NCBI GenBank assembly: GCA_002428565.1
Contig: DIXA01000058.1
Span: forward strand, 51,570-115,569
Direction of reading: 5' to 3'
Source: Anaerolineales bacterium UBA6092
Lineage (GTDB): Bacteria > Chloroflexota > Anaerolineae > Anaerolineales > UBA4823
Length of the DNA stretch: 64,000 nt
Positions 5,976 to 53,482 of this stretch are shown here, piece after piece (within the stretch, counting starts at the first letter, position 1; each line of letters begins with the position of its first letter). A program made the position numbers and the translations under genes. The notes beneath the pieces were generated by a model. The model did no database searches, was not told the origin of the DNA, and saw only the letters and a list, made by a program, of their open reading frames with translations.

Positions 5976-5987
5976 CAGGAGTAGCGT

Positions 5988-10631: not shown

Positions 10632-10664
10632 AGATGATTTCTTGGGTCAGGAAGGTGTAGCGCA

Positions 10665-13097: not shown

Positions 13098-13110
13098 ATT
13101 TGGGAATCTT

Positions 13111-18841: not shown

Positions 18842-18906
18842 TGTACGCAGCCCGTTGAGTGGTGCCCCAAACTTACACCACGGGCTGCAAACAGGAAGAT
18901 GAACCT

Positions 18907-20433
18907 ATGGACAAACAGGATCACGTGAGTACCTCATCCCCCCGCCATCAGCAGATTGGCGTCAGCCGCCCTCCGCTGGCTGTGGAAGACCTGCCCACCC
19001 CCGAAGAAGCGTTTCGGGTGCGGCACATTGGCTTCGAGCAGTGGGTTGCCCTCATTCTCGGCCCCAGCTTGATCGTACTGGGGGCCTCGGTGGGCGGTGG
19101 CGAGTGGCTGTCTGGCCCGCTGAGCGTGGCTAAGTATGGATTCCTGGGTATTGGCTGGGTGATCCTGGTCTCGACGATATTGCAGGTGTTCTATAATGTT
19201 GAGCTGGCGCGCTTCACCCTGGCGACCGGCGAAACGCCCGTGGTGGCTTTTGGGCGCATCCCGCCAGGGTATTTCCTCTGGGTGCCGCTGGCTCTGTTAT
19301 TCGTCTACCTGGCATTCATTCTGGGTGAGTGGACGATGCAGGCTGGTGGCAGTCTGTTCACCCTGGTGAACAACAGGCCTTACGAAGCGCAAGAAGTGGA
19401 GATTGTGCGTATCCTTGGCATCGCTCTGATGCTGAGCGTCTTCCTGTTTGTTTCGGTTGGGCGCAAGATCATGCGCACCCTGGAAGGGGTGATGGGCGTC
19501 CTCCTGGCATTTGTGTTGATCGGCATCTTGCTCATTACCCTGGTGGTTGTGCCGCTGAATTACTGGGGCAGTTCTCTGGCTTCATTGTTCATTCCAACCC
19601 TGCCGCCCTCCGGGGCTGATCTCTCGGTGCTGGGCTCCCTGGCTGGCTACACTGCCCTGGCGGCAGGGCTGAACTTCATGTTCATTGGGTATTACCGGGA
19701 TAAAGGCTATGGCATGGGCACCCGCATGGGGTTCTTGGGTGGCTTGCTCGGAAGACGGCCAACCAGCCTGGATGCGGTGGGTAAGATTTTCCCCGAATCT
19801 GAAAAAAACACGCGCACCTGGAAACGCTGGTTCCGCATCCTGGTGGTGGATCAGTGGGTGATTTACTTTATCGGAGCTTTGGTGGGGATGGTGGTGCCGA
19901 GCATCCTGGTTGCTTACCTGGCCCAGACCCCAGGGAATGCCCAGCCCACCTCAGCCAGTATGATTGCCTATGCGGCGACGAACTTGGGCTCGCAATATGG
20001 GCCAGTGGTCAGCGGGTGGATGTCGATCGTCGGCTTTATGGTGTTGTATAGCACGCTGGTGGTGATCTTGGAGGTGTTGGTGCGCAATATGACGGATGCA
20101 CTCTTCGCCTATAGCCGCCGTGTCCGCGAGTGGTGCCGTAATGATACGCGCAGGTTCTACTTCCCATTCATGCTGGTGGTGATCTTGCTCATTGGCATCT
20201 TGATCCACCTGCCATTATCAGGCAATTTGACGGAAATTTCGGCAAATATGGCGAATTTAGCTGCGATATTCTTCCCTCTCGGCATGATCTACCTGAACCG
20301 TCACCTGCCTCGCCCAGCCCGCATTACCTGGTGGTCGTACCTGGTATTGATCTTGAATGTGTTGTTCTTTGGTTTCTTCTTTGTGAACTTTGTGGTTGTC
20401 CAGCTAACTGGCGCACCGTTGGTGCGGTTCTAA
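18907..20433 (+). CDS. Polytopic membrane transporter, Nramp-related (COG1914-like) family
   Basis: ATG 18907 has AGGAAG 10 nt upstream; the ORF-track start is 18859. About 11-12 TM helices. The N-terminal block LGPSLIVLGASVGGGEWLSGPLSVAKYGFLGIGWVILVSTILQVFYNVELARFTLATGE parallels the Nramp GPG...G..Y....W motif region. The family call is from memory only. Confidence 0.5.
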   Translation: MDKQDHVSTSSPRHQQIGVSRPPLAVEDLPTPEEAFRVRHIGFEQWVALILGPSLIVLGASVGGGEWLSGPLSVAKYGFLGIGWVILVSTILQVFYNVELARFTLATGETPVVAFGRIPPGYFLWVPLALLFVYLAFILGEWTMQAGGSLFTLVNNRPYEAQEVEIVRILGIALMLSVFLFVSVGRKIMRTLEGVMGVLLAFVLIGILLITLVVVPLNYWGSSLASLFIPTLPPSGADLSVLGSLAGYTALAAGLNFMFIGYYRDKGYGMGTRMGFLGGLLGRRPTSLDAVGKIFPESEKNTRTWKRWFRILVVDQWVIYFIGALVGMVVPSILVAYLAQTPGNAQPTSASMIAYAATNLGSQYGPVVSGWMSIVGFMVLYSTLVVILEVLVRNMTDALFAYSRRVREWCRNDTRRFYFPFMLVVILLIGILIHLPLSGNLTEISANMANLAAIFFPLGMIYLNRHLPRPARITWWSYLVLILNVLFFGFFFVNFVVVQLTGAPLVRF

Positions 20434-20492
20434 GGAGTTGCCCGTGAAGAGACAAGTTGTGGATCTCATTTGTGCAAGGGACGGAGGCGCGT

Positions 20493-22730
20493 ATGCCTGA
20501 ATCGAGCACAAACACAACAGGCAGCATCTTGCCTGGCAGGCGATCTGGAAGCATTGGTGCGCGCCTGCTGCTGGCCTTTGTCTTGCTGGTGCTGTTACCG
20601 GTCGTCATTTTGAGCCTGGTGTTGATCATTTCCAATGTGCAGGGCAGCCGAGAGCAGCTGCAAAGAGATTTGGATACCGCATTGGCGTACAAAGAGGCCG
20701 CCATCGACGAATGGCTTTCTCGGCTGGAATTCCAGATCAACAATACTGCGCTGGGATTGGCCTCTCAGAGTGATGTGCAGATATTTTTGCATCCCGATAC
20801 GGTTGAGCCTGAAGCCTGGACGGCGGCCTCTAACCACTTGCAAGATTATCTGCGGCAGGTGGCTGGCACGCTGGACGATTTCGATGAATTGATCTGGTTG
20901 GATCAGAGCGGAAGAGTGCTGCTGGCAACCGGAGCGACGCAGGTAGGCGCTAACCTTTCTGGAGATGCATTCTTCTTGCCCAATGCCACCCAGGCAATGG
21001 TGCCACCGCCGGTTTATTCGCGAGATCTGGGGTATGTGTCCTTCTTTGCTGTGACGCCGCTCCGCTCTGCCAGCGGTGAGCAGCAGGGTTTGCTGGTAGC
21101 CAGGGTGAACAAGATGCCCTTGAATGTGATCCTGTTGGAGCAGCAAGGACTGGGAGATACAGGCGAGACCTTCCTGGTGGGGCAGGGATACCTGTTCCTG
21201 AACAAGCCCCGCTACCCAACTGCCGCGCTAACGAACAAGAGCGCCGGCGCATTGGTGGCGCTGGATTCGGAGGAGAACGGCAGCGGCACCTACAGCAGCT
21301 ATCATGGGGAGAGGGTGTTTGGCGTGTACCATTGGCTGCCGCGGCTGGATGCGGTGCTGATTGCTGAGCAGGAACTCGTTGAGTCGACGCGGGCTTCGAA
21401 CGCGGTAGTGGCGGTGAACCTGAGCATTGGCCTGGCCTCTCTGCTGATCGTTATTGTGGCTGCACTGGTGATCACCTCGGATATTGCCACACCGGTCTCC
21501 GAGATGGCTTCCACCGCGGTGCAGGCGGCCCAGGGTGATTTGAGCCAGAAATTGGATATTGAACGCCAGGATGAGATTGGCGACCTGGCGCAGGCTTTCA
21601 ATGCCATGACTACGCAGTTGCAGCAAACCCTGGGCGGATTGGAGCAGCAGGTTTCTGAGCGCACGTCTGCATTGGAGCAGCGTACCTCTTACTTGCAGGC
21701 CTCGGCAGATGTCAGCCAGGTGGTGAACTCCATCCTGGAGCCGGACCGCCTGGTGCAAGATGTGGTGGACTTGATCCGCGAACGGTTTGGTCTGTATTAC
21801 GTGGGTCTGTTCCAGATGGACGAAAGCGGCGATTGGGCTGTTTTGCAGGCTGGGACGGGAGAAGCCGGGCAGGCGATGGTTGACCGCGGGCACCGTATCC
21901 GCACCGGGATGGGCATGATTGGCTGGTGTGTGGCCAATGCCAAGCCGCGCATTGCTCTTATCGCAGAGGACGACCAGGTGCGCCTGCGCAACACCGAACT
22001 GCCCGATACGCGTTCTGAGGCGGCACTACCGCTGCGCTCGCGGGGGAACGTGATTGGCGCATTGAGCATTCAGAGCGCGCAGCCCAATGCCTTCAACGAA
22101 GATAACATCTCGGTCTTTCAGGTGATGGCAGACCAGGTGGCAGTTGCAATTGACAATGCGCGTCTTTACAAAGAAACACAGAAGGCGCTGCAGGATGTGC
22201 AGCGCTTCTATTCCGATCAGTCGCTGGACCTGTGGCGCGATTATATGCAGCGCAAAGGCGGCCTGGGCGTGCGCAGCGATCAGCTCGGCACCGGGGAGGG
22301 CGCAGTGGAGTGGGGCACGGAGATGGTGGACGCCTTCTGGTCGGGTGAGACAGTGCGCTCAACTACCGCAGAGGAAAACCGCAATGTGCTGGCAGTACCG
22401 ATCAAATCGCGCGATGTGGTGGTGGGCGTGTTGAACACCTACAAACCGATCGAGGCAGGCACCTGGACCGAAGAGGAGATGCGCCTGCTGGGCGATCTGT
22501 CCGATCAGCTGGGTGTGGCGCTGGAAACGGCACAGTTCTTCAGCGAGACGCGCGAACGTGCCGAGATGGAGCGGCTGGTGGGTGAGATCACAGCCCACAT
22601 GCGCCAAACCCTGGATGTGGACCAGGTGCTGCAAACAGCCGCGCGCGAGATGCGCCAGGTTTTGGACCTGGCAGAAGTGGAAATCCGCTTGCGCCCTGTG
22701 GGTGACCAAGGAGAGGAGGAAGCGAAATGA
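20493..22730 (+). CDS. TM-dCache-TM-HAMP-S-helix-GAF receptor, no output domain
   Basis: ATG 20493 has GGAGG 5 nt upstream. Cache block (GDTGETFLVGQGYLFLNKPRY...VFGVYHWLPRLDAVLIAEQ); HAMP (IGDLAQAFNAMTTQL); VSERTSALEQRTSYLQASADV; A-type GAF (RFGLYYVGLFQMDESGDWAVLQAGTGEAG...VIGALSIQSAQPNAF); half-GAF (TWTEEEMRLLGDLSDQLGVALETAQFF); tail EMERLVGEITAHMRQTLDVDQVLQTAAREMRQVLD. Confidence 0.87.
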   Translation: MPESSTNTTGSILPGRRSGSIGARLLLAFVLLVLLPVVILSLVLIISNVQGSREQLQRDLDTALAYKEAAIDEWLSRLEFQINNTALGLASQSDVQIFLHPDTVEPEAWTAASNHLQDYLRQVAGTLDDFDELIWLDQSGRVLLATGATQVGANLSGDAFFLPNATQAMVPPPVYSRDLGYVSFFAVTPLRSASGEQQGLLVARVNKMPLNVILLEQQGLGDTGETFLVGQGYLFLNKPRYPTAALTNKSAGALVALDSEENGSGTYSSYHGERVFGVYHWLPRLDAVLIAEQELVESTRASNAVVAVNLSIGLASLLIVIVAALVITSDIATPVSEMASTAVQAAQGDLSQKLDIERQDEIGDLAQAFNAMTTQLQQTLGGLEQQVSERTSALEQRTSYLQASADVSQVVNSILEPDRLVQDVVDLIRERFGLYYVGLFQMDESGDWAVLQAGTGEAGQAMVDRGHRIRTGMGMIGWCVANAKPRIALIAEDDQVRLRNTELPDTRSEAALPLRSRGNVIGALSIQSAQPNAFNEDNISVFQVMADQVAVAIDNARLYKETQKALQDVQRFYSDQSLDLWRDYMQRKGGLGVRSDQLGTGEGAVEWGTEMVDAFWSGETVRSTTAEENRNVLAVPIKSRDVVVGVLNTYKPIEAGTWTEEEMRLLGDLSDQLGVALETAQFFSETRERAEMERLVGEITAHMRQTLDVDQVLQTAAREMRQVLDLAEVEIRLRPVGDQGEEEAK

Positions 22731-23917
22731 GGTTCTTTCTGAAGATGCGCAGGGGCAGAACGGTGAGAGCAGGGATCCGGCCAGTGATGGCAGTGGTGTT
22801 ATCGCTGGTGATCCTGGTGGGCCTGGTTGGCTGCCAGGGAAGCAAAGAGCAGATCCGCATTGGCTTGATCGTCACCCAGAGTGGAGAAAATGCTGCCCTT
22901 GGTCAGCAGATGATCAACGCAGCCGAGATGGCAGCCAAAGAAATAAATAATGCGGGTGGTTTGCAGGTGGCAGATCGCCAGGTAGAGGTGGTGCTGGTTA
23001 TCAGGGATGACGAAGGCAATTCGGAAACTGCCGCCGGGGTGGCGCAGGAGCTGATTGCCCAGGAGACGGTGGCGGCACTGGTGGGGCCGCTGTTGGACCG
23101 CAGCGCGCTGGCGGCGGCAGTGGTGGCTGAGAACGCCCGTGTGCCAATGATCAGCCCAACTTCAACAGACTCGCTCACCACGGCTGGCCGGCAATATGTG
23201 TTCCGGGCAACCTATACAAACGAATTCCAGGGCGAGGTGATGGCTCGTTTTGCCATTGAAGACCTTGGCGCGGCGGCGGATGCGCGCGGCGCGGCGGTGA
23301 TCTACGATGTGGCAGATGATTATAACCGCGGCATTGCCGAGCGTTTCAAACAGGTGATGGAAGATGCGGGCGTGCGGGTTTCGGTGTACGAAACCTATAC
23401 CACCGGCGAGACGGATTTCAGCAGTCAATTGGAGGAAGTGGCGGGCGGTGTGAACGTGATTGTGCTGCCCAACTACCCCAGCGATGTGGCCTTGCAGGTG
23501 GAGCAGGCCCGCGCGATGGGCGTTTTCCAAACCATTATTTGCAGCGACGCCCTCAGCGGGATCAACCCGGCGGATTACCCGGCGTTGGATCGTATCTTCC
23601 TGACGGCGCCCTGGCACCCGGCAATCCAGGGTGATGTTTCGCAAAAATTTACCGAGGCATACCGGGCAGCCTACAATCAGGAACCGAACAGCGTGGCAGC
23701 CCTGACTTATGACTCGATGCAGCTATTGTTCCAGGCGATCCGCAGCCAGGGTAGTTGGGAACCGCAGGCAATTCGAAATGGGCTGGTTGGCTTGGGACGA
23801 TATGAAGGCGTGACGGGCGTGATCGAATATCAGAATTCGGGCGACCCGGTGAAGAGCGTGGCGATCTTACAGATCAAAGATGGCAAGTACTATTTCTTTA
23901 AGCTGGTGAGCCCGTAG
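22727..23917 (+). CDS. Solute-binding lipoprotein, type-I LivJ/Peripla_BP_6-like; orphan (no ABC permease or ATPase nearby)
   Basis: ATGA overlap with the upstream receptor gene. Lipobox LVGC. IRIGLIVTQSGENAALGQQMINAAEMAAKEINNAGG and VAALVGPLLDRSALAAAVVAENARVPMISPTS are typical of branched-chain amino acid / amide-type binding proteins. Confidence 0.8.
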   Translation: MRFFLKMRRGRTVRAGIRPVMAVVLSLVILVGLVGCQGSKEQIRIGLIVTQSGENAALGQQMINAAEMAAKEINNAGGLQVADRQVEVVLVIRDDEGNSETAAGVAQELIAQETVAALVGPLLDRSALAAAVVAENARVPMISPTSTDSLTTAGRQYVFRATYTNEFQGEVMARFAIEDLGAAADARGAAVIYDVADDYNRGIAERFKQVMEDAGVRVSVYETYTTGETDFSSQLEEVAGGVNVIVLPNYPSDVALQVEQARAMGVFQTIICSDALSGINPADYPALDRIFLTAPWHPAIQGDVSQKFTEAYRAAYNQEPNSVAALTYDSMQLLFQAIRSQGSWEPQAIRNGLVGLGRYEGVTGVIEYQNSGDPVKSVAILQIKDGKYYFFKLVSP

Positions 23918-23989
23918 AGGACCTTTCTCCTGGTATCTCTTGCACGATGGAGATACGGGAGGCGTAGGAACTGATCGAGGAATAGACCT

Positions 23990-26272
23990 ATGAAATTGCG
24001 CACTCGAAGCCTGGTGGCCCGAATCGTGGGTTACTTCTTACTTTTGTCGTTGATTGCGACAACCATTGTGCCAGTGGCAAGTTTCTTCCTGGCGCGGCAA
24101 GCGCTGCAGCGCTCTGTTTTTGAGCGCCTGGAGGTGGCGGCTACGCTCAAGGAAAATGAGCTGAACCGCTGGGTTGAAGATAACCAGGCTGATATCCTGT
24201 TCATTGCCCAATCGCCAGAGTTTAGCAGCCAGGCCTGGCGCCTGCTGACCGTCAGCGAAACCTCGCCAGAATACCGCGTGGCGTATTCGGCCCTCTCCAA
24301 CTACCTGGCTTCGCTGCTGGGCAATAAAACCAACTTGCTGGAAGTGTTTATTATGACGGCAAAGGGCGGCCAGGTGGTGCTCTCTACCGATAAGACGCGG
24401 GAGGGTGATTACCGGGCGACCGATACCTATTATACGCAAGGCCGCCTGGGCACTTACGTTCAGAATGTGTACACCTCTCCGGTCACCGGCAAACCCACCA
24501 TGACCATCTCCACGCCGTTGTTCGACCCAACTACAAACAGCCTGGCGGGAGTATTGGCGGCGCACTTGAACCTGGAGCGGTTAGACAGTATTATCCTGGA
24601 ACGCGCCGGCTTAGGCGAAACGGGCGAAACTTACCTGGTGAGCCAGTACGGCTCCTTTGTTTCTGAAGCGCGCTTCGCCGGCGAAGAATTCGCCCGCGGG
24701 GTACATACCGAAGGTATTGACCAGGCGTTGGAAGGGATGGATGGCTTTGGTACCTACGAGAACTACCAGGGAACGCCGGTCTTGGGCGTTTACCGCTGGC
24801 TGGACGAGCGCAGCCTGGCGCTGGTGGCAGAGATCTCGCAGGAGGAGGCCTATGCCCCGGCAGCGCGCCTGGCGGGGACGATCTTCCTGCTGAGCCTGGT
24901 TTCGGCGGGCCTTCTGGCAGGGGGGGCTTACCTGGTTGCCCGACAGATTGCCCGGCCTATTCTGGCGATCAACGAAGTGGCTGGTTATGTGGCCAAGGGC
25001 GATTTGAGCCACCAGGCAGTTGTGCTGACTCAGGATGAAATTGGCACCCTGGCTACTACTTTCAACGAAATGACCCGGCAGTTGCGCGAACAGTTGGCCG
25101 GCCTGGAAGAGCGCGTGGGTGAGCGCACACGTGAATTGCAGCGCCGGGCTGTGCAATTGCAAGCCGCGGCCGAGGTGGGCAGCGCGGTGGCAAGCGTGCG
25201 TGACCTGAGCCGATTGCTGCAAGATGTGACCCATTTGATCAGTGAGCGGTTTGGCTACTATCACGTCGGCATCTTCTTGATCGACGAAAGCGGAACCGAG
25301 GCGGTGCTGCGGGCAGCCAACAGCCCTGGCGGTTTGCAGATGTTGGCCCGCGGCCATAGGCTAAAGGTGGGGCAGAAAGGCATTGTGGGCTATGTCACCG
25401 GGCAGCAGAAACCGCGCATCGCCATGGATGTGGGGCAGGATGCTGTGTATTTCGATAACCCCGACCTGCCCGAGACGCGCTCTGAGATGGCCTTGCCTTT
25501 AGTGGCTGGCGGGCAGTTGTTGGGTGTGCTGGATGTGCAGAGCAAGGAAGAGATGGCTTTTAGCCAGGAAGATATCGAGACGCTGCAGGTGCTGGCAGAC
25601 CAGGTGGCGGTGGCAATTGAAAATGCCAACCTGTTCAGCGAGACGCAGGCAGCGCTGGATGCCTCTCGCCGGGCGTATGGCGAGATCAGCCGCCAGGCCT
25701 GGGGTAAGATCCTGGCGGTCCGACCAGATTTGGGCTACTTGTGCGACCGCCGCGGCCGCACCAAGCCGGCCAGCGGGAAGTGGTCTGGCGAGCTGGCTGC
25801 CGCGCAGACCTCGGGCAGGGTGACCCAGGTGGAAGACCGCACCGTGATCGTACCTTTCAAGGTGCATGGGCAAACCCTGGGGGTGGCGCGGCTGCGCAAA
25901 CCGGAGGATGCTGGTGAATGGACCAAGAAGGAAATTGACTTGATGGAGTCATTGGCCAGTAACCTGGGCGAATCATTGGAAAGCGCGCAGTTGTACAACG
26001 ACTCGCAGCGACGGGCGGTGCGTGAGCAGCTCGTTGGCGAAGTGACCTCGGCCATGCGCGAGAGCCTGGATGTGGACACGGTGCTGCGCACTGCCGCACA
26101 GCAGATCCGGCGGGCGCTGAACCTGGCCACGGTGGAAGTGCGTCTGGGCGCTTCTGTTAGCGAGGCAGCGCCAGGCGACGAAAGTTCTGGCGAGGTGAGT
26201 GAACCAACGCAAGACCCAATGACTGCCCCCGGTGAGGCGGACTTGCCTGAAGCGGATGGGAGGCTCGCATGA
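23990..26272 (+). CDS. TM-dCache-TM-HAMP-S-helix-GAF receptor, no output domain
   Basis: Cache block (GETGETYLVSQYGSFVSEARF...VLGVYRWLDERSLALVAEI); HAMP (IGTLATTFNEMTRQL); VGERTRELQRRAVQLQAAAEV; A-type GAF (RFGYYHVGIFLIDESGTEAVLRAANSPGG...LLGVLDVQSKEEMAF); half-GAF (EWTKKEIDLMESLASNLGESLESAQLY); tail VREQLVGEVTSAMRESLDVDTVLRTAAQQIRRALN. Confidence 0.87.
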   Translation: MKLRTRSLVARIVGYFLLLSLIATTIVPVASFFLARQALQRSVFERLEVAATLKENELNRWVEDNQADILFIAQSPEFSSQAWRLLTVSETSPEYRVAYSALSNYLASLLGNKTNLLEVFIMTAKGGQVVLSTDKTREGDYRATDTYYTQGRLGTYVQNVYTSPVTGKPTMTISTPLFDPTTNSLAGVLAAHLNLERLDSIILERAGLGETGETYLVSQYGSFVSEARFAGEEFARGVHTEGIDQALEGMDGFGTYENYQGTPVLGVYRWLDERSLALVAEISQEEAYAPAARLAGTIFLLSLVSAGLLAGGAYLVARQIARPILAINEVAGYVAKGDLSHQAVVLTQDEIGTLATTFNEMTRQLREQLAGLEERVGERTRELQRRAVQLQAAAEVGSAVASVRDLSRLLQDVTHLISERFGYYHVGIFLIDESGTEAVLRAANSPGGLQMLARGHRLKVGQKGIVGYVTGQQKPRIAMDVGQDAVYFDNPDLPETRSEMALPLVAGGQLLGVLDVQSKEEMAFSQEDIETLQVLADQVAVAIENANLFSETQAALDASRRAYGEISRQAWGKILAVRPDLGYLCDRRGRTKPASGKWSGELAAAQTSGRVTQVEDRTVIVPFKVHGQTLGVARLRKPEDAGEWTKKEIDLMESLASNLGESLESAQLYNDSQRRAVREQLVGEVTSAMRESLDVDTVLRTAAQQIRRALNLATVEVRLGASVSEAAPGDESSGEVSEPTQDPMTAPGEADLPEADGRLA

Positions 26273-29076
26273 CACCATTCCGGCGTTTGACACTATTTGC
26301 AGGCCTGGGCGATGTGCTGTTGCTGGCAACAGCGGCGGGATTGTATTTCTACTTCGGCCAGACCTCCTACTTGATCTTGGCGGGCCTGGTGGCTGCTCTC
26401 CTGGCATCTAAACTGATCGGCTATACGGTGGCGCGCTCTACGGGTCGTGAAGAACTTGGCCTGCTCATCTACAGCCTGGCGTACAGCCTGATTATTGCAT
26501 TGCCGGTGTTGTGGTTCACAGATTATTGGTGGGTGGGCCTGATCATAGGAGTCTTGCTGACCATGCTGCCCTGGTTGGGCGGTCAGCCCAGGCTTGCGGT
26601 TCCGCTGGTGCTGCTGGCTTTGTTCAGCACGGCGTTGATGCTGGTATTGGATATCTGGCTGATTGGGGGCGAGCGGATGAACCTGGTTCGCAACCCCTGG
26701 CTGGCAGTGTTGATGGCGGTGGGCTATGTGGCGCTGGTGCTGCTGCCTGGCTTGTTCAGTTCCACCCGCCTCGGCGAGGAAAAAACGGGCGTGTTCCCCC
26801 GTCTGTTGTCATGGTTCTTGGGTGTGGCGGTGATCGCAGCCGTGGTGGTGATGGTGGTGATCTTGTGGCAGGCAAACCGTCTGCAAGTGGAACAGAGCGG
26901 GGTGCAAAACCTGCGCCTGGCAAACCAGCAGGCGGAACGAGCAGGCAACCTGCTGGAAGAGCGGTTGGCCACGCTGCAATTACTTTGGCATTCCGCCACG
27001 GTGGTAAACGGCATCAATGCAGCAAACACCTATTATGGGTATACGATTGCCAGCCCAGAAACCCGGATGGATTTACGAGCAAGAAACACAGAATGGCAGA
27101 CGGCAGCCGTCAACAGCGAGCTGGTACGGCAGTATCTTCTTAACGAGGAAACCCAGGCGCTGACGCGTTTTGTCAACGCCCACCCCGAATACCTCACCCT
27201 GATCGTAACAGACAAGTTGGGCGGGTTGGTGGCGGCGACGGGCGGCAAGCCGGAGCTTTTCTTCTACGGTGATGAGGCCTGGTGGCAGGCCGCCATGCAA
27301 GGCGCCGACGGTGCTTATGTGGGAAACCTGGCATACGACGAAAAATCAGGTACCTACACCGTGCTGATCGCCATAACGGTGAAAGATCCCTCCACGGTGG
27401 GCGAGGGCGCCAGCCCCAACCAGGGCGCGGTGGTGGGCCTGCTGGCCTCCACGCTTGACCTTCGCCCGATCCAGTTGGGCTTGCAGGATCGCCCGGCTGG
27501 TTTTAGCGGGCAGCTGGGCTTGATCAGTCCCGACGGGCAAGTGCTGGCAGGGGCAGATCTTGCCGCGGTGCAGGCAGCCTGGGACGAACTTCCCGCCTCA
27601 GCGTTTTTGGTGGATCAGACCTCGACCTGGGGTTTCATCTCTGGCATCCTGGGTGAACGGGTGATGATCGCACACTCTCCATTAAAGACCACCAGCGGCG
27701 ATTATCTCACCGTGCTGAAGAACCTGGGCTGGCAGATGGTGGCATTCCAGAGCGAGAACAGCATCCTGGCTGGATTGAACCAGATCATGCAGATTGCCAC
27801 CCTGGCTGCCGTGGCGGCGCTGGCACTGGCAGTATGGGCTTCCTGGCGGGCGGCTGCGCAAATTCGTAAGCCCATCTCTGCGCTGACCGATACCGTGCAG
27901 ACGGTGACCCAGGGAAACCTGGACCAGCATCTGCCGCCGGGCGGGCTGGTGGAATGGAACCAGCTTTCGGACACCTTCAACCAGATGCTGACCCGCTTGC
28001 AGCAAACCCTGGCGGACAAGGATCGCCAGGTGGCTGCCAGTGCCGAAGTGTTGGAAGAGCGCACGCGGCAGATCCAGGCGGCGGCAGAGGTAGGCCGGTC
28101 GGCGGCCTCGATCTTGAATGCGGATGAGTTGATCCAAGAAGTGGTGGGATTTATCCGCAGCCGTTTCAACCTGTACTATGTGGGCTTGTTCCTGGTAGAT
28201 GAAACCGGCGAGTGGGCAATGCTGCGAGCCGGAACGGGCGAGGCCGGCAAGATCATGCAGGCGCGCGGGCACCGCATCCGGGTGGGGCAGGGTATGATCG
28301 GCTGGAGCATTGCCAACCAGTTGGCGCGCGTGGCTGGTGAGGCTGGCGCCGATGCGGTGCGCCTGGCTACCGCCGAGCTGCCCGAGACGCGTGCGGAGGC
28401 GGCGCTGCCTCTGATCTCGCGCGGTCGTGTGATTGGCGCGCTGACGGTGCAAAGCGGGCAAGAAGGCTTCTTTACCGAGTCTACGGTGGTTGTGCTGCAG
28501 ACCATGGCAGATCAGGTGGCAGTGGCGTTGGATAACGCCCGCCTGTTTGCCGAGAGCCAGTTGGCTTTGGATGCCCTGCGCCGCTCTTACGGCGAAGTCA
28601 GTGGCCGAGAATGGGTGGGTATGATGCGCACCCGGCAGATTCCTGGGTATTCTAGCGACGAGCGCGGTGTTTATCCGGTGAAAGAGGATGCCACCGCCGG
28701 CAGCAAGGGTGCAAAGAAAGGCGATCTGGAGATCCCGGTGAAGGTGCGCGATCAGGTTTTGGGCATGCTGACGGCAGCCAAGCCGAAGGGAGGCAGCGAA
28801 TGGAGCGAAGAGGAAGTGGCGCTGTTAGAAACTTTGGCCGGCGAATTGAGCGTGGCGCTGGAGAATGCCCGTCTTTATGAGAGCACCCAACGCCGTGCGG
28901 AACGCGAGCGCGTGCTGGCAGATATTACTGCCAAGGTGCGCTCTTCGACCGATATCAACGTGATCCTGCAAACGGCCATCCAGGAACTGGCCGATGCGCT
29001 GCGCGTCTCTCGCGGCAAGATCGAGCTGCACCAGGCAGACATCGACGGTGAGAACGGAGGCAACACGGATGATTGA
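26269..29076 (+). CDS. Multi-TM-Cache-TM-HAMP-S-helix-GAF receptor, no output domain
   Basis: ATGA overlap with the upstream gene. About 6 N-terminal TM helices. Extracytoplasmic domain of about 330 aa. HAMP-like (QIRKPISALTDTVQTVTQGNLD...LSDTFNQMLTRL); A-type GAF (RFNLYYVGLFLVDETGEWAMLRAGTGEAG...VIGALTVQSGQEGFF); half-GAF (EWSEEEVALLETLAGELSVALENARLY); tail ERERVLADITAKVRSSTDINVILQTAIQELADALR. Confidence 0.86.
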   Translation: MTPFRRLTLFAGLGDVLLLATAAGLYFYFGQTSYLILAGLVAALLASKLIGYTVARSTGREELGLLIYSLAYSLIIALPVLWFTDYWWVGLIIGVLLTMLPWLGGQPRLAVPLVLLALFSTALMLVLDIWLIGGERMNLVRNPWLAVLMAVGYVALVLLPGLFSSTRLGEEKTGVFPRLLSWFLGVAVIAAVVVMVVILWQANRLQVEQSGVQNLRLANQQAERAGNLLEERLATLQLLWHSATVVNGINAANTYYGYTIASPETRMDLRARNTEWQTAAVNSELVRQYLLNEETQALTRFVNAHPEYLTLIVTDKLGGLVAATGGKPELFFYGDEAWWQAAMQGADGAYVGNLAYDEKSGTYTVLIAITVKDPSTVGEGASPNQGAVVGLLASTLDLRPIQLGLQDRPAGFSGQLGLISPDGQVLAGADLAAVQAAWDELPASAFLVDQTSTWGFISGILGERVMIAHSPLKTTSGDYLTVLKNLGWQMVAFQSENSILAGLNQIMQIATLAAVAALALAVWASWRAAAQIRKPISALTDTVQTVTQGNLDQHLPPGGLVEWNQLSDTFNQMLTRLQQTLADKDRQVAASAEVLEERTRQIQAAAEVGRSAASILNADELIQEVVGFIRSRFNLYYVGLFLVDETGEWAMLRAGTGEAGKIMQARGHRIRVGQGMIGWSIANQLARVAGEAGADAVRLATAELPETRAEAALPLISRGRVIGALTVQSGQEGFFTESTVVVLQTMADQVAVALDNARLFAESQLALDALRRSYGEVSGREWVGMMRTRQIPGYSSDERGVYPVKEDATAGSKGAKKGDLEIPVKVRDQVLGMLTAAKPKGGSEWSEEEVALLETLAGELSVALENARLYESTQRRAERERVLADITAKVRSSTDINVILQTAIQELADALRVSRGKIELHQADIDGENGGNTDD

Positions 29077-31945
29077 AATACAAGAACTCACCCGTAAGAA
29101 AAATAAGTCCAGCCTGGCCGCGTTGCGCGACCGGCTTCAGAGTGCTCTGTCAGACCAGCGGAGAAACGCCTGGTGGGTTATGGGCGGGGTCATTGCATTA
29201 GCCACCATTGCGCTGATGGTTTATTTGTATGTGGCTTTACAGAACAACGTATGGCAGTACTATGGCCTGGTGGGGGCGGCGCTGTTGCTGATCGTGGCTT
29301 GTGTGGCTGGCATCTTGCTTTCTCGTCGCGGCCAGACGATACGGGGCATCTGGTTAATGCTGTTCCTGGGGGTGGTCGCTCTGGCAATCAGCCCGTTGTT
29401 TGTTGCAAACGTGGGCATCTGGTATGCTGGTGTGATCGTTCTGTCAACACTTGTCGTTAGCACGTTATGCCTGCCTTCGCGGCAGGGGAACTGGGCCAAC
29501 CTGTTAGGCGTACTGGGTGGCATCGGCGCCTTACTGAGCGATAGCTTTTTGGATGTTTTTCAGGTTGCTTCGCCTGCGCTGCTGCTGTATCTATTGTACT
29601 TTTTAATGGGTTTCATGGCGGTGGGTTACCTTTTTACCCTGGTTGTTTTCTTCACAACCTTTGACTTGCGGGCCAAGATCACGGTGACCATGTTTTCAAC
29701 AGCCGTGCTCTCGATCATCGCAGTATCTGTCATCAATAATATTACTACCCGCCGGGAATTGGTAAGTGCGGTGAACCAGACTTTGCTGGTGGCAGCGAAT
29801 TACACGGCTCGCAATGTGGATGAGTACCTTGATGAAATCGCCCTCCAGATGGGCATGGACGCGCTTTCACCATACTTGTCGGATCACCTTGCCTTGTTGG
29901 AAGAAGAGCAAATAGAACAGCAACAGACTGCTAGCATCTTCATGCTCTCGCTGCGCTCGCGCACGGGCGCGCAGCAATATGTGCTTCTGGATCGCAGTGG
30001 GAAGGTGGTGCTGCACACGCAGTACAGCAACCATGCAGATGTTGCGCAGCTGCCCGTTTACCTGGGATTGAGCGATGCAGACCGGAACACGTTTCTGATC
30101 TCGGTCCTTTCGGGTGTGCCTTTCTACTCGTCGGTGATCTTCCCTGATCAGGGTGAGCCGTATTTCTATGTTGGCCAGCGCATTTTGGATGCGGATAAAA
30201 AACCAGCAGGCCTGCTGATGGCCAGTTATCCGCTTGCGGCTGTGCAGACGTTAGTGAGGGAGAGCAAAGGCCTGGCAGGCGAGGGGTCGTATGGTGTGCT
30301 GCTGAGCGGTGATTATCTGCGCATCGCTCAGAGTGGTTCGCAAGAGGGGCTTTATCAACTGGTCGTTCCGCTTTCTGATGCGGAGATGGAGAAGATGAAG
30401 GCCAGCCACGATCTGCCCAATAGGCCCCTGGAGGAATTGGCCACCGATTTTCCGGAGTTCAAAGCCGGCCTGGATAACATCACTTCCACACCTTTCTTTG
30501 CCTCGCGCGAGGTTGGGACAGGGGATGACGTGAACTCGATGGCGGTGCTGCGGCTGGAATCACAGGGATGGCTGATGGTGTTCATGCAGCCGCAGTCGAT
30601 CATCCTGCGCCCGGTGGAGGATCAAACACGCACGATCGTGCTCTTTGCTTCGATTATAGCCGGGTTGACGGTGCTGACCGCCACGGGGCTGGCACAGCTC
30701 CTTTCGCGGCCGATTGTGCGCCTGACGGGTGTGGCTGAAAAGGCTGCCGCAGGCGACTGGAGCCAGGAGGCCGAAGCCCAAGGTCAGGATGAGATCGGCA
30801 AGCTGGCCAATGCCTTCAATATCATGACCGGTCAATTGCGGCAGACATTTGAAGAACTGGAAACGCGCGTCGATCAGCGCACCGCCGAACTGGCGCACAC
30901 CTCTGAGCAGATGGAGTATCGTGCTCAGCGCCTGCAAAAAGTGGCCGAGGTGACGCATGTTATTGCTGCTGAGCAAAACCCAGACAAACTGCTCACCCTG
31001 GCAACCCAGACGATCAGTGAACAGTTTGACTATTACCATGTGGGCGTTTTTCTGCTGGATAAGGATGAAGAATATGCCGTGTTGCAGGCGGCGAATTCTG
31101 CCGGCGGGCAGCGCATGCTGGCGCGCGGCCACCGTTTGAAGGTTGGCGAGGTGGGCATTGTGGGGTATGTGACCAAGAAAGGGCAGCCCCGCATCGCTCT
31201 GGATGTGGGCGAGGATGCGGTGTTCTTTGATAACCCCGATCTGCCCCAAACTCGCTCTGAGATTGCCCTGCCGCTGAAGATCGGCTCGCGGGTGATCGGC
31301 GCCCTGGATGTGCAAAGCACCGAATCAGGCGCGTTCAGCGGAGATGATACGGCTTTGCTCTCCACCCTGGCAGACCAGGTGGCTATGGCGATCCAAAACG
31401 CCCGCCTTTTTGGCGAGACACAGCGAGCGCTGCGCGAACTGCAAACTGCCCAACGCCAGTACATCCGCCAGGAATGGATGAGCATGGCAGCAGAGAAGCC
31501 GCAAACCGGCTATCAGTACCTTTTTGGCAACCTGCAGCCGGTGGGCAGCGCGGCAGTGCAGACGCTGGAAGCCGGTGATGATGAAGCTCGGATGATCAGG
31601 TTAGAGGCAGGCGAGGAACCCCTGGAAATCCCCATTTCCCTGCGCGGCCAGGTGATTGGCAACATTCAAATGGGCGGGCCAGAAGACCTGCGCAACTGGA
31701 GCGAAGAAGAGATCCAACTGGCGCAGGCTGTGGCTGACCAGGTGGGCCTGGCGCTGGAAAATGCCCGTCTGCTGGAAGTGACCCAGCGGCGTGCTGAGCG
31801 CGAGCGCACGGTTGCCGAGATCACCACCAAGCTGCGCGCCACCAATGATCCGCAGGCCATCCTCGATGCGGCGGTATCTGAGTTGCGGACGGCCCTGCGC
31901 GCCAAGACAGTGCGGGTGAGCATCCAAAAGAAAGATGGGAGTTGA
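29069..31945 (+). CDS. 7TM-Cache-TM-HAMP-S-helix-GAF receptor, no output domain
   Basis: I chose ATG 29069 (GGAGG 8 nt upstream, 8-nt overlap with the upstream stop); the ORF-track start is 28994. About 7 TM helices. Extracytoplasmic domain. HAMP (IGKLANAFNIMTGQL); VDQRTAELAHTSEQMEYRAQRLQKVAEV; A-type GAF (QFDYYHVGVFLLDKDEEYAVLQAANSAGG...VIGALDVQSTESGAF); half-GAF (NWSEEEIQLAQAVADQVGLALENARLL); tail ERERTVAEITTKLRATNDPQAILDAAVSELRTALR. Confidence 0.87.
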   Translation: MIEIQELTRKKNKSSLAALRDRLQSALSDQRRNAWWVMGGVIALATIALMVYLYVALQNNVWQYYGLVGAALLLIVACVAGILLSRRGQTIRGIWLMLFLGVVALAISPLFVANVGIWYAGVIVLSTLVVSTLCLPSRQGNWANLLGVLGGIGALLSDSFLDVFQVASPALLLYLLYFLMGFMAVGYLFTLVVFFTTFDLRAKITVTMFSTAVLSIIAVSVINNITTRRELVSAVNQTLLVAANYTARNVDEYLDEIALQMGMDALSPYLSDHLALLEEEQIEQQQTASIFMLSLRSRTGAQQYVLLDRSGKVVLHTQYSNHADVAQLPVYLGLSDADRNTFLISVLSGVPFYSSVIFPDQGEPYFYVGQRILDADKKPAGLLMASYPLAAVQTLVRESKGLAGEGSYGVLLSGDYLRIAQSGSQEGLYQLVVPLSDAEMEKMKASHDLPNRPLEELATDFPEFKAGLDNITSTPFFASREVGTGDDVNSMAVLRLESQGWLMVFMQPQSIILRPVEDQTRTIVLFASIIAGLTVLTATGLAQLLSRPIVRLTGVAEKAAAGDWSQEAEAQGQDEIGKLANAFNIMTGQLRQTFEELETRVDQRTAELAHTSEQMEYRAQRLQKVAEVTHVIAAEQNPDKLLTLATQTISEQFDYYHVGVFLLDKDEEYAVLQAANSAGGQRMLARGHRLKVGEVGIVGYVTKKGQPRIALDVGEDAVFFDNPDLPQTRSEIALPLKIGSRVIGALDVQSTESGAFSGDDTALLSTLADQVAMAIQNARLFGETQRALRELQTAQRQYIRQEWMSMAAEKPQTGYQYLFGNLQPVGSAAVQTLEAGDDEARMIRLEAGEEPLEIPISLRGQVIGNIQMGGPEDLRNWSEEEIQLAQAVADQVGLALENARLLEVTQRRAERERTVAEITTKLRATNDPQAILDAAVSELRTALRAKTVRVSIQKKDGS

Positions 31946-32701
31946 CCATGCAAGTCATCGCAATTGCTAACGAAAAAGGTGGCGTAGCCAAAACCACCAC
32001 GGTTATATCTTTGGCAGGGGCGTTGGTGCAGGCTGGGTACGGCGTGCTGGCGATCGACCTGGATGCCCAGGCGAACCTGACCCTGGGCCTGGGCTTACAG
32101 CCAGCCCGGCTGCGCCGCTCGGTGGCAGATGTGCTGCTGAACTCGGCGGCATTGCTGAGCGTGAGCCGAGAAACCAGCGTTTCAGGCTTAGACGTGGTGC
32201 CCGCCAATGCCGACATGGGCCTGGCAGAGCGTTTTCTGCCTGTGCGCCAGAATTATGAGTACATTTTACAGAATGCGCTGCGCGACAGCCCTGGCCTGGC
32301 AGCCTATCATTATGTGCTGCTAGACTGCCCGCCCTCGCTGGGCGCAGTGACCACCAATGCCCTGACGGCAGCCAATCTGGTGATTGCGCCCACCCAGCCG
32401 GAGTATTTCTCGGCTTACGGTTTGCGCAGCCTGATGGCGACCATCCGCCGGGTGCGCAGCCAGAGCAACGCTGCCCTGTCTTATTATGTGCTCATCACGA
32501 TGATGGATCGCCGCAACCGCATCCACCGTACCTTGTGTGAACAATTGCAGGTCACGTTTGGAGAAGGTTTGTTGAAGACGATCATTGAGGTGGATACCAA
32601 GCTGCGTGAGAGCACGGTAGCCGGTATGCCCATCACCCATTATTTCCCCAAGAGCCGCAGTGCCATGCAGTACACTGCCCTTGCCCAGGAGTTGGTGAAT
32701 C

Positions 32702-40918
<8,217 letters not shown>

Positions 40919-40948
40919 TCCGTGAGCGAAACGGAGGAAAGAAAGATC

Positions 40949-42640
40949 ATGCCATCTCACGTTATGGTTGAATGCCTGGACTGCGGGCATCGTGCGCCAT
41001 TTGTACCGGCTTCGGTGGCCTGCCCCTCTTGTGGCGGGCAGTGGCGAGAAGCGCGCTATCCCTATGACACCCTGAAGGCTACGCTGCCCGACCTGTTCCG
41101 CGCGCGGCCTTTCGATCTTTGGCGTTACCGCGAAGTGCTGCCCGTGCAGGGGCCAAACCCGCTGATCAGCATGGGCGAGGGAGGCACGCCGCTGATCCAT
41201 GCTGCCAACCTGGGCATGATGCTGGGCTGTCCGCATATTTTTATCAAAGATGAGCGGCAAGGCCCCACGGCGTCTTTCAAGGACCGCCAGGCTGCCATCA
41301 GTATCGCCGCGCTGAAAGATGCCGGGATCACCGAAGCGGTGCTGGCTTCGACCGGGAATGTGGCGATTGCTTACTCGGCTTACGCGGCCCGGGCGGGCAT
41401 CAAGCTGTGGACCTTCCTGACCAGCCTGGTGCCGGCTGAAAAGATGCGCGAGGTGGCGATCTACGGCTCGCAGGTGGTGAAGGTGACCGCCTCGTATGAC
41501 CAGACCAAGCAAGTGGCAGCTGAGTTCGCCCGGCAGCGCGGCCTGTACCTGGAGCGCGGCTCGCGCTCGATCCCTTCAGTGGAGGGGATGAAAACCATTG
41601 CGTATGAGCTTGTGGAACAACTGACGGATATCTTTGGGCCGCCCATCCCGGCAGAGAACCATGCTTCCTCGCGCTATGTCTGGCGGGCGCCAGATTGGTA
41701 TGTGCAGGCGGTCAGCGGCGGCTTAGGGCCGCACGGGGTGCAGAAGGGCTTTGAAGAGCTGTACCAGATGGGGCTGATCGACCGCCTGCCTGCCATGGCC
41801 AATATCCAGACGGACGGCTGTGCGCCGATGGTGCACGCCTGGCGCTTGGGCCAGGATACGGCTGATCCGATCCGCTCGCCGCGCACGCACATTGCCACAC
41901 TCTCCACCGGCGACCCCGGGCGCACTTATACCCTGCTGCGCCAGCGCATGCTGCAAGGCGGCGGTGGCGTCTTTGAGAGCGTAACCGACGAGGAGGCTTT
42001 CCGCACCATTCATATCCTGGCAAAGATGGAAGGCCTTTCGGTAGAGCCGGCCGCGGCGGTGGCCTTTGCGGGAGTGGTCAAGATGGTGCGGGCGGGCGTG
42101 ATCAAACCCACCGATGTGGTGGCGGTGAACTGCTCGGGCCACACCATGGCGATCGAGAAAATGATCCTGGGCGAGGGCTGGTCGCGGGATGTGGAAGTCT
42201 CGGCAGAGGTGATGCGCGATAAGCCGGAGGAAGGCTTGTTGGCGGCATTGAGCCGGGTGACCTCCGAGCGCTTCCCGCGCGTGGCGATTGTGGATGATAC
42301 ACCCGATGCGCGCCGCCTGATCCGGCGCATCTTGCAGGCCCAGGGCGATTACGTACTCTCAGAGGCCTCCAATGGGCATGAGGCGCTGGAGCTGGCGCGG
42401 CGCGAACACCCCGACCTGATCATCCTGGACCTGATGATGCCAGAGGTGGATGGCTTCACGGTGTTGGATCAACTCAAGGGCGATCCGCAAACCGCCTCGA
42501 TCCCGGTGATCGTTGTTACGGCGAAGGAACTGACCACGGAGGAGAAAGCGCGCTTACAAGGCCGTATTCACTCGTTGATGCAGAAGGGGGAATTCATGAA
42601 CGATGAATTTCTTGATGAAGTGATGACGCTGTTAAAGTAA
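40949..42640 (+). CDS. Threonine-synthase-like PLP-dependent enzyme (PALP fold, N-terminal zinc ribbon) fused to a C-terminal response-regulator receiver
   Basis: ATG 40949 has GGAGGA 9 nt upstream; GTG 40922 is an alternative start. Ribbon CLDCGH...CPSCGG. PLP-lysine motif PTASFKDRQA (Lys codon 41279-41281). ASTGNVAIAYSAYAARAGIKLWTFL. Receiver from about 42278: VAIVDDTPDARR, DLIILDLMMPEVDG (Asp codon 42428-42430), VIVVTAKELT, LMQKG. Confidence 0.82.
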   Translation: MPSHVMVECLDCGHRAPFVPASVACPSCGGQWREARYPYDTLKATLPDLFRARPFDLWRYREVLPVQGPNPLISMGEGGTPLIHAANLGMMLGCPHIFIKDERQGPTASFKDRQAAISIAALKDAGITEAVLASTGNVAIAYSAYAARAGIKLWTFLTSLVPAEKMREVAIYGSQVVKVTASYDQTKQVAAEFARQRGLYLERGSRSIPSVEGMKTIAYELVEQLTDIFGPPIPAENHASSRYVWRAPDWYVQAVSGGLGPHGVQKGFEELYQMGLIDRLPAMANIQTDGCAPMVHAWRLGQDTADPIRSPRTHIATLSTGDPGRTYTLLRQRMLQGGGGVFESVTDEEAFRTIHILAKMEGLSVEPAAAVAFAGVVKMVRAGVIKPTDVVAVNCSGHTMAIEKMILGEGWSRDVEVSAEVMRDKPEEGLLAALSRVTSERFPRVAIVDDTPDARRLIRRILQAQGDYVLSEASNGHEALELARREHPDLIILDLMMPEVDGFTVLDQLKGDPQTASIPVIVVTAKELTTEEKARLQGRIHSLMQKGEFMNDEFLDEVMTLLK

Positions 42641-43581
42641 TGCGCAATAAAGGGCTTTACGCTGCACTCGCCTCGGCTGTATTTTTGGGTATGGCGCCCG
42701 TTTTTGGCAAGTACGCCATTAGCGTGGGCATGCCGCCGATGGGCGTGGTGGTGCTGCGTACTTCCCTGGCAGCCCTGCTGCTGCTGGTGGTGCTGCTGAT
42801 CTTCAAGCGGTCGTTTTTGTTTATCTACCCGGCTGGGCTGCTGGGCTGCATGCTGGCAGGCGGCATTAATGGGCTGGGCTCTATCTTTTACTACACTGCC
42901 CTGGGACGGATCGATGCCAGCCTGGGACAGCTGCTATATTCGCTTTACCCGCTGTTTGTGGTGCTCTGGCTGTGGATGGATCACCAGCCGCCCAGCCGCT
43001 TGACCATCTTCCGCCTGGGGCTGATCATCCCGGCGATATACCTGCTCACCTTTACCCGCCATCAAGTGCTGGATATCCCCGGGGTGCTGATGATGCTGGC
43101 GGCCTCGATCTTATATGCGCTGCACCTGCCCATCAACCAGCGTGTGCTCCTGGATATGCCCGCGCCCACGGTGACGTTCTACACCCTGCTGGCGATGAGC
43201 CTGGTGGTTGCCCCGGCATACTTCTTCTTCAGCAATTCGATCGGGGGCAGCCTGAATGCGGCCTGGGGCGCGGTGCTGGGCCTGACCCTGGTCACTTTCC
43301 TTTCCCGGTTGACGCTGTTCCTGGGTGTTAAGCACCTGGGAGGGGCGCAGACGGCGCTGCTGGGGTTGGGTGAGCTGCTGGTGACGCTGGTGGTGTCCCA
43401 TTTGTGGCTGGATGAGCGCCTGAGCCTGGCGCAGTGGGTGGGCGCGCTGCTGCTGGCGGTCAGCTTGGGGCTGATCGCTATGGAAAAGCCGGGGCCGCGC
43501 AAGTACTCTCGCGGCGGCTGGCTGAGCTGGCTGCGTCCTCCGGGCATTCCCAAGGATATCGCCTGGCCGCCAGGCTCGTAA
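42640..43581 (+). CDS. EamA/DMT-family 10-TM transporter
   Basis: TAATG junction with the upstream gene. Two EamA-like halves (ALASAVFLGMAPVFGKYAI..., ...AASILYALHLPINQRVL...). About 10 hydrophobic helices. Confidence 0.8.
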   Translation: MRNKGLYAALASAVFLGMAPVFGKYAISVGMPPMGVVVLRTSLAALLLLVVLLIFKRSFLFIYPAGLLGCMLAGGINGLGSIFYYTALGRIDASLGQLLYSLYPLFVVLWLWMDHQPPSRLTIFRLGLIIPAIYLLTFTRHQVLDIPGVLMMLAASILYALHLPINQRVLLDMPAPTVTFYTLLAMSLVVAPAYFFFSNSIGGSLNAAWGAVLGLTLVTFLSRLTLFLGVKHLGGAQTALLGLGELLVTLVVSHLWLDERLSLAQWVGALLLAVSLGLIAMEKPGPRKYSRGGWLSWLRPPGIPKDIAWPPGS

Positions 43582-53454: not shown

Positions 53455-53482
53455 CCTTGCGCTGATTATAGCATAGCGGTAG

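Follow-up and report, generated by a model that had tools for sequence, protein, structure and literature searches.

The stretch of DNA analysed here, 64,000 nucleotides (nt) of Anaerolineales bacterium UBA6092 (GCA_002428565.1, contig DIXA01000058.1, positions 51,570 to 115,569; hereafter the window), contains a gene in which a pyridoxal 5'-phosphate (PLP) enzyme of the threonine synthase (ThrC) family is joined to the receiver (REC) domain of a response regulator. This gene, called ThrC-REC below, is the middle gene of a conserved operon, preceded by a hybrid histidine kinase and followed by an EamA-type permease. The features of the operon, and after them those of the remainder of the window, are listed in table 1.

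Table 1. Features of the ThrC-REC operon and of the surrounding window (positions are those of the window; aa, amino acids).
Feature	Position	Strand	Basis or remark
ThrC-REC gene, 563 aa: zinc ribbon, ThrC-like PLP domain, linker, receiver	40949..42640	+	open reading frame, Pfam, more than 120 full-length homologues (70-92% identity)
Shine-Dalgarno sequence GGAGGAA	40934..40940	+	8 nt before ATG 40949; read off the sequence
N-terminal Cys4 zinc ribbon (C9, C12, C25, C28)	40973..41032	+	conservation; weak DUF7129 match
Fold-type II PLP domain (PALP, ThrC-like), residues 73-395	41165..42133	+	Pfam, E 7e-58
PLP lysine K111 (SFKDR), codon	41279-41281	+	motif invariant in 226 sequences
Flexible inter-domain linker, residues 398-440	42140..42268	+	AlphaFold pLDDT, conservation
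C-terminal receiver (REC)	42269..42637	+	Pfam Response_reg, residues 445-546, 78.7 bits (cutoff 30.2)
Phospho-acceptor D494 (LDLMMP), codon	42428-42430	+	invariant
Hybrid histidine kinase, 2738 aa: 12 GAF, HisKA, HATPase_c, REC, REC	32702..40918	+	Pfam
EamA/DMT-family permease	42640..43581	+	Pfam EamA; start overlaps ThrC-REC stop (ATGA)
ParA/MinD-like P-loop ATPase, immediately before the kinase gene	31942..32748	+	Pfam AAA_31, CbiA
Co-directional array of about 10 kinase-less sensors (dCache-HAMP-GAF, MASE11-GAF)	3774..31945	+	Pfam, NCBIfam
NMT1/THI5-like binding protein (periplasmic)	9615-10631	+	among the sensor genes
Nramp-family metal transporter	18859-20433	+	NCBIfam, 136 bits (cutoff 50); among the sensor genes
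Peripla_BP_6 (Liv-type amino-acid) binding protein	22727-23917	+	among the sensor genes
1512-aa protein: double zinc ribbon, two adenylate/guanylate cyclase domains, AAA_16 ATPase, TPR	43616-48154	+	
OmpR-type response regulator, REC-GAF-HisKA kinase, GAF-GAF-HisKA kinase	48235-53601	-	
2496-aa predicted surface protein: subtilase S8, CarboxypepD_reg, PKD and PEGA repeats	53845-61335	+	
tRNA gene	2537-2608	+	Rfam, 64.7 bits; sole structured-RNA match in the window
Stand-alone receiver protein, just downstream of the tRNA	2701-3294		

The open reading frame (ORF) of ThrC-REC has two possible starts, 40922 (GTG) and 40949 (ATG), and ends at 42640. The ATG is the true start, because of the Shine-Dalgarno sequence upstream of it and the equal length of the homologues; 30 nt separate it from the stop codon of the kinase gene, and the Shine-Dalgarno sequence lies within this gap. 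An initial annotation, made from the letters alone, had described a ThrC/PALP fold-type II enzyme, a Cys4 ribbon and a complete receiver, and the ORF and Pfam analyses place all three in one reading frame; the motifs that it quoted (Cys4, SFKDR, ASTGN, LDLMMP, VVTA and QKG) are present and conserved across the 226 family members. In the ribbon, which gives a weak Pfam match to DUF7129 at residues 3-33, C25 and C28 are invariant in the family alignment, and C9 and C12 are conserved in at least 90% of sequences. ASTGN corresponds to residues 133-137. The linker carries the conserved motif PEEGLLxAL, with an invariant G429, and its residues 398-426 appear disordered (predicted local distance difference test, pLDDT, <50) in an AlphaFold model based on an alignment of 40 sequences (overall pLDDT 79.9, predicted template modelling score 0.74).

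The receiver scores above the Pfam gathering threshold and holds the full set of acidic pair, Asp, Thr and Lys. The acceptor D494 is invariant, and the other active-site residues, D449/D450, T524 (VVTAKELT) and K546 (QKG), are conserved in at least 90% of 40 diverse members and in both fused clades. Judged by these residues, the receiver of ThrC-REC is predicted to be phosphorylation-competent. The receiver closest to it is the second receiver of the adjacent kinase (39% identity), which has the same xKG variant.

That ThrC-REC might be an assembly or frameshift artefact merging two genes can be set aside with near certainty. Although the Logan contigs of the source run break at 42412-42439, within the most conserved, repeat-like segment of the receiver where there is a depth spike, one contig of the source metagenome (a 2013 hydrocarbon sample) matches positions 39500-42439 with 0 differences and runs from the gene start through the PALP-REC junction, and in an unrelated groundwater metagenome another contig extends over 41427-42603, again across the junction. 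Hundreds of independent full-length homologues of the same architecture, isolate genomes among them, complete the refutation, and the reservation of the initial annotation, that two genes could have been joined in error, is thereby removed. A roughly fivefold spike in contig depth over 42369-42519, around D494, is seen in all four metagenomes; it is cross-mapping of paralogous receivers and no feature of ThrC-REC itself.

The fusion is widespread. PALP and REC domains occur together in 120 of the 120 best database matches (70-100% identity), and when one genome per GTDB species was scanned the fusion was found in at least 184 species-representative genomes of the class Anaerolineae. All carriers listed are Chloroflexota, with labels mostly of Anaerolineales; Anaerolinea thermolimosa IMO-1 and Longilinea arvoryzae KOME-1 are cultured isolates with the fusion. 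A second fused clade (clade B, ~548 aa) is present in Aggregatilineales and other Anaerolineae, and there are double-receiver relatives (PALP-REC-REC, ~695-715 aa) and a Thermoflexus form of ~540 aa. In a neighbour-joining tree of a representative set, all fused forms together with a few REC-less proteins make up one clade, which arises from within the zinc-ribbon PRK08197-type ThrC group; zinc-ribbon proteins without the fusion form a small sister group to it. Because all fused forms across Anaerolineae cluster in this one clade, the fusion is ancient and class-wide, a family and not the one-off that a single-window view might suggest. Relatives of ThrC-REC also appear to be transcribed, as seen in an environmental metatranscriptome.

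Two members of the clade deserve separate mention. P0126, 420 aa long and at 51% identity, scores above the ThrC cutoffs and was considered as the housekeeping ThrC of the class; it was rejected, being a rare REC-less form nested in the fused clade. The fused relative P0122 (562 aa, 56% identity) has a degenerate receiver, with 27 bits against the Pfam cutoff of 30.2; its usual Thr/Lys receiver motifs look altered by eye, and it may be a pseudo-receiver variant.

Among 83 loci compared, all those with upstream sequence have a kinase core directly before the fused gene. EamA follows immediately downstream in 80 of the 83, with a median gap of 21 nt (78 loci), and in at least two of the three remaining loci the sequence ends within ~130 nt of the gene. 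In most loci a gene for a ParA-like ATPase precedes the fused gene by 4-7 kb. The module of kinase, ThrC-REC and EamA is likewise present in clade B, and EamA directly downstream is found in both Anaerolineales and Aggregatilineales. The upstream hybrid kinase is presumed to be the cognate kinase of ThrC-REC. P0278, a REC-less relative inside the fused clade, has neither kinase nor EamA nearby, and since the kinase is missing where the receiver is missing, the two appear to travel together. The double-REC form is preceded by a kinase of >3300 aa and a REC-cyclase, has no EamA, and is accompanied by several single-domain REC proteins.

Biosynthetic partners of threonine synthase are not part of this neighbourhood. 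The initial annotation had seen no thrA, thrB or hom nearby, which holds for the genes annotated across the 64-kb window, and in about 85 loci the fused gene never adjoins hom or thrB. A scan for promoters and terminators gave nothing above shuffled expectation and speaks neither for nor against the operon; no riboswitch, including the S-adenosylmethionine (SAM) riboswitch, was detected at the locus.

The enzyme domain has the ThrC fold. Its best solved sequence relatives are threonine synthases (2zsj at 2e-41, 1uim at 3e-38), and the top 17 Foldseek matches of the AlphaFold model are all ThrC chains, with target-normalised TM scores of 0.73-0.87; for the ThrC structures compared here, TM is 0.80-0.87. 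Foldseek also matches the ThrC-like CapA2 of Alistipes finegoldii (9k3c), which we take to be a cysteate synthase. Because the PLP lysine with its SFKDR motif, STGN, the glycine loop and the Ser/Thr contacting the PLP ring nitrogen are invariant in the 226 fused sequences, the enzyme domain clearly appears to be under selection for catalysis. ThrC-REC nevertheless scores below the curated cutoffs of the threonine synthase models: 228.9 against 303 for PRK08197, 137 against 167.1 for TIGR00260 and 172 against 421 for PRK05638. Zinc-ribbon proteins that are farther away (~35% identity; P0155, P0158 and P0162) pass both PRK08197 (337-372 bits) and TIGR00260 (251-261 bits). Membership of the cysteate synthases was considered as well and rejected, the model TIGR03844 giving 90.3 bits against a cutoff of 324.9.

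The most conspicuous change concerns the phosphate pocket. In Thermus thermophilus ThrC the reported ligands of the substrate and product phosphate (Omi 2003; Murakawa 2011) are K61, T88, N154, S155, R160 and N188. Throughout both fused clades K61 is kept, and T88V, R160S/A and N188G are invariant in the 226 sequences; the last of these belongs to the conversion of the GNAGN loop of ThrC to SGGLGP. New conserved charged residues appear around positions 154-156. The three replacements sit in well-anchored motifs and are robust, and the altered signature is shared by most of the unfused sister group. Judged from the alignment, the phosphate pocket of the fused family is unlike that of the characterised ThrCs. 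In the Thermus enzyme the retained phosphate reportedly (Murakawa et al. 2011) assists the addition of water and in this way gives specificity for threonine; therefore, the reaction specificity of the fused family may differ from that of ThrC.

With somewhat better than even confidence, we interpret ThrC-REC as a paralogous response regulator whose output is a threonine-synthase-family PLP enzyme gated by phosphorylation, and which works beside its kinase and the EamA permease. The adjacent kinase would phosphorylate D494 of the receiver, and this phosphorylation would switch the activity of the enzyme, probably through a dimerisation of the receiver that acts on the dimeric PLP domain by way of the conserved linker motif. 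As in ThrC, the reaction would be a gamma-elimination and a subsequent addition, and its substrate an anionic amino-acid ester, most likely O-phosphohomoserine. With the re-modelled pocket, the product could be threonine, or else homocysteine, another sulfur amino acid or 2-oxobutyrate; the chemistry may not be threonine synthesis. The co-translated permease would transport this product, or an amino acid related to it, through the membrane. An environmental signal would thus probably switch an amino-acid reaction directly on or off. The regulation by phosphorylation, its direction, the substrate and the product are all proposed from sequence and gene order.

Several observations weigh against this interpretation. 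At or near the ThrC cutoffs are the members of clade B, the form of Thermoflexus and P0126, which is REC-less, all with the NCBI name threonine synthase; the borderline relatives P0126 and P0417 reach 305.5 and 298 bits with PRK08197, and 180.9 and 172.2 bits with TIGR00260. The loop at 152-160 is alignment-dependent, HMMER and MAFFT disagreeing over positions 154 and 155, and variation at the phosphate-ligand positions also occurs in distant proteins that score above the cutoffs of the ThrC models. Identity across genera is 64-92%, as high as for a housekeeping enzyme. The linkage to EamA is missing in the double-REC and Thermoflexus forms. No histidine phosphotransfer (HPt) domain was found, and the route from the hybrid kinase to the fused receiver is assumed to be direct.

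We infer that ThrC-REC is a specialised paralogue. The opposite account, in which it is the sole, housekeeping threonine synthase of Anaerolineales and the receiver tunes ordinary synthesis in the way that SAM acts on the plant enzyme, seems to us unlikely. In its favour, the protein matches ThrC in its fold and in its PLP and carboxylate motifs, conservation in the class is very wide and strong, JGI and often NCBI label the protein a threonine synthase, members of clade B and Thermoflexus stand at the ThrC cutoffs, and no second ThrC-like gene was seen in 1.6 Mb of related loci, a coverage so small that the absence is uninformative. A literature search on thrC in Anaerolinea or Anaerolineae returned nothing useful. 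Against an ordinary sole thrC stand the scores of the window protein under both curated cutoffs, the family-wide replacement of T88, R160 and N188, the constant location within a signalling operon that includes a permease, with hom or thrB in no case adjacent, and the presence of two thrC-annotated genes in Thermoflexus hugenholtzii. The KEGG Orthology (KO) table of strain JAD2 holds two K01733 genes, one with a score of 190 beside hppA and the other with 73 beside mtnA, and thrB too (PMC8129789). In a Thermoflexus metagenome-assembled genome the fused gene begins 6 nt after mtnA (L089, 8949-11623; TIGR00512 458 bits against a cutoff of 279). Because of this shared adjacency, the weak match of JAD2 is probably the fused paralogue and the much better one the canonical thrC. 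It counts against this assignment that JAD2 comes from a different order, and that the case rests on mtnA adjacency and not on the sequence of the gene.

The nature of the chemistry divides the remaining evidence. Threonine synthesis, or a regulated export of threonine or homoserine, fits the fold, the annotation, an aspartate kinase gene beside one unfused sister and the exometabolome of Thermoflexus: T. hugenholtzii accumulates extracellular homoserine/threonine and has three RhtA/EamA-type exporter genes (PMC8129789), none of which adjoins either thrC-annotated gene. A competing proposal, to which we give only a minor share of our belief, is that of sulfur incorporation, a beta- or gamma-replacement like that of MetM or cysteate synthase under receiver control, in which O-phosphohomoserine or O-phosphoserine would yield homocysteine, cysteine or a sulfonate and EamA would export the sulfur amino acid. 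Export of cysteine and O-acetylserine is known for the founding EamA protein, the presumed cysteate synthase CapA2 is among the structural matches, and the altered pocket would disturb the phosphate-assisted addition of water that is reported for Thermus ThrC. Three gene contexts point the same way: mtnA, a gene of methionine salvage, before the Thermoflexus fused gene; the unfused sister P0395 between cysH and the aspartate kinase gene lysC (L087, 1664-5610); and the unfused sister P0392 beside the glutamate-cysteine ligase gene gshA (L086, 10001-12479). The three sulfur-related neighbours all exceed curated cutoffs and belong to members outside the kinase-EamA operon; there are only three such contexts, and the aspartate kinase suits threonine synthesis equally well. 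ThrC-like enzymes of such chemistry, for example MetM, are known and are often misannotated as ThrC (GapMind 2026; PMC12172450), and T. hugenholtzii is without recognised cysteine and homocysteine routes (PMC8129789). The score with the cysteate synthase model, far below its cutoff, and the lack of a SAM riboswitch at the locus argue in the other direction, as does the lack of MetO, of a ThiS-, MoaD- or NIL-type carrier and of any sulfur-assimilation gene among the annotated ORFs of the window, which outside 39-45 kb comprise only ORFs of at least 180 aa and could miss a small carrier. A MetM-like system in the window was rejected for want of a carrier protein and a SAM riboswitch; this concerns the neighbourhood only, and MetM-like chemistry is kept as a rival.

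It is far less probable, to the point of being hardly credible, that the PLP domain, as a ligand sensor or inactive pseudoenzyme, merely modulates the receiver, the protein as a whole being a phosphate sink or adaptor in the phosphorelay of the kinase. Such a role would agree with the two receivers that the kinase already has, the fused one being most like the second, with the degenerate receivers of some relatives such as P0122 and with the single-domain REC proteins beside the double-REC form, but a pseudoenzyme would not be expected to keep its PLP and carboxylate motifs invariant in 226 sequences, and the tight coupling to a permease suggests a flux of metabolite.

Comparison with known systems helps to define what is new in ThrC-REC as a probably phosphorylation-gated enzyme. 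The canonical class I ThrCs (T. thermophilus 1UIM/1V7C, Aquifex aeolicus 2ZSJ, Mycobacterium tuberculosis 2D1F, Bacillus subtilis 6CGQ) have the same fold at 27-32% identity and share the SFKDR lysine, the STGN carboxylate loop and the Ser/Thr at the PLP ring nitrogen. To these ThrC-REC adds the Cys4 ribbon, a variable insertion at ~228-244, the 45-residue linker and the C-terminal receiver, and it differs in the pocket replacements, in SGGLGP for GNAGN and in its sub-cutoff curated scores. The zinc-ribbon PRK08197 ThrCs (~410-420 aa, many bacteria and archaea) are the closest enzymes: they have the same layout of ribbon and PALP and belong to the best-scoring curated model, but are themselves without a receiver. 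Plant ThrC (Arabidopsis 1E5X/2C2B), also a structural match, sets the precedent of signal-dependent switching of a ThrC at the branch point of O-phosphohomoserine; there SAM activates at a small-molecule site formed by an N-terminal extension, with no phosphorylatable domain. MetM of Streptomyces albulus and the cysteate synthases (Methanosarcina; Bacteroidota CapA, 9K3C) are ThrC homologues that use phospho-amino-acid substrates for a sulfur-incorporating replacement, and lack a receiver. MetM has the carrier MetO (plus Mec and MoeZ) and in S. albulus a SAM riboswitch; no counterpart of the carrier was found among the annotated ORFs of the window, and no such riboswitch at ThrC-REC.

The response regulators with enzymatic outputs (the methylesterase CheB, the cyclases PleD and WspR, RpfG and phosphatases of the RsbU type) likewise combine a full receiver with an enzyme and have a kinase next door. 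The logic implied for ThrC-REC, in which phosphorylation would gate catalysis, is as in regulators of the CheB/PleD type; the output is a PLP amino-acid enzyme, and the receiver is C-terminal to it, opposite to their usual order. IlvA, with ACT-like domains, and cystathionine beta-synthase, with a CBS pair, follow the same design of a fold-type II PLP core and a C-terminal regulatory module, and a more distant parallel is provided by the PLP decarboxylases LdcI/AdiA and M. tuberculosis Rv2531c, which have a receiver-like wing domain. The extra modules of these enzymes bind small molecules or mediate oligomerisation, and none of them is known to be a two-component receiver that is competent for phosphorylation and has its kinase next door. 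Rv2531c carries a receiver-fold domain (PMC12329521). The initial annotation considered a PLP enzyme an unusual output for a response regulator, and this judgement is upheld by full-text literature searches, in which no earlier description of a receiver-controlled PLP-enzyme output was found.

Other ThrC-like proteins carry extra domains of a different kind. In P0168 (611 aa) the C-terminal addition is a LeuA allosteric/dimerisation domain, which may be shared by P0180, P0217, P0233, P0240, P0258 and P0259 (611-620 aa; of the seven, only P0168 was scanned), and P0230 (718 aa) has an N-terminal domain of the inositol-monophosphatase family. The ThrC scaffold has been fused repeatedly to regulatory or partner domains.

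The known targets of response regulators are transcription, second messengers, protein methylation and phosphatases. If our interpretation is true, direct phospho-control of a PLP amino-acid enzyme would add primary metabolism, or amino-acid export, to the immediate outputs of two-component systems, and ThrC-REC would be new in two respects, in its class of output among response regulators and in its kind of switch among ThrC-family enzymes. The family is large, ancient and restricted to Anaerolineae. These bacteria are filamentous and abundant in sludge, sediments and the subsurface, and they are hard to culture and often dependent on partners; a signal-gated amino-acid synthase with an exporter is a candidate mechanism for regulated excretion or cross-feeding of amino acids. 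On the practical side, hundreds of database entries named threonine synthase may differ in activity, which affects predictions of auxotrophy for Anaerolineae. To enzymologists, the family could be of use as a natural ThrC scaffold that combines a re-modelled phosphate pocket with a predicted built-in switch.

The genes upstream of the operon form a sensory neighbourhood of their own. The sensors of the array end in GAF domains, with no kinase or other output, and are followed by the ParA/MinD-like ATPase and the 12-GAF kinase, the whole running on the forward strand from 3774 to 40918; similar sensor genes are located upstream of the fused gene in three other loci (L001, L002 and L084). By analogy, this layout recalls chemoreceptors with a positioning ATPase and CheA, and it suggests that the sensors could signal to the kinase through GAF-GAF contacts. 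A further-reaching idea, which we hold to be doubtful, makes ThrC-REC the metabolic output of a so far unrecognised, GAF-built sensory apparatus resembling a chemotaxis array. About ten kinase-less sensors of dCache-HAMP-GAF type, similar to methyl-accepting chemotaxis proteins, would then feed the 12-GAF kinase, the ParA-like ATPase would position the assembly, and phosphorylation would lead the enzyme to make a molecule derived from an amino acid, for export by EamA. Outside, this molecule could serve as a signal between cells, or as a currency of cross-feeding, along the Anaerolineae filaments. It could also act back on the GAF domains and so close an adaptation loop, in which ThrC-REC would have a role like that of CheB.

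Among the sensor genes are those of two binding proteins and a metal transporter (table 1). Downstream of the operon, the 1512-aa cyclase protein lies between EamA and the divergent genes for the OmpR-type regulator and kinases, and is missing from that place in locus L001. An OmpR-type regulator after EamA, on the opposite strand, is present in about half of the related loci. Long ORFs on the strand opposite to the gene of the 2496-aa predicted surface protein (53845-61335) match no family and are unlikely to be genes.

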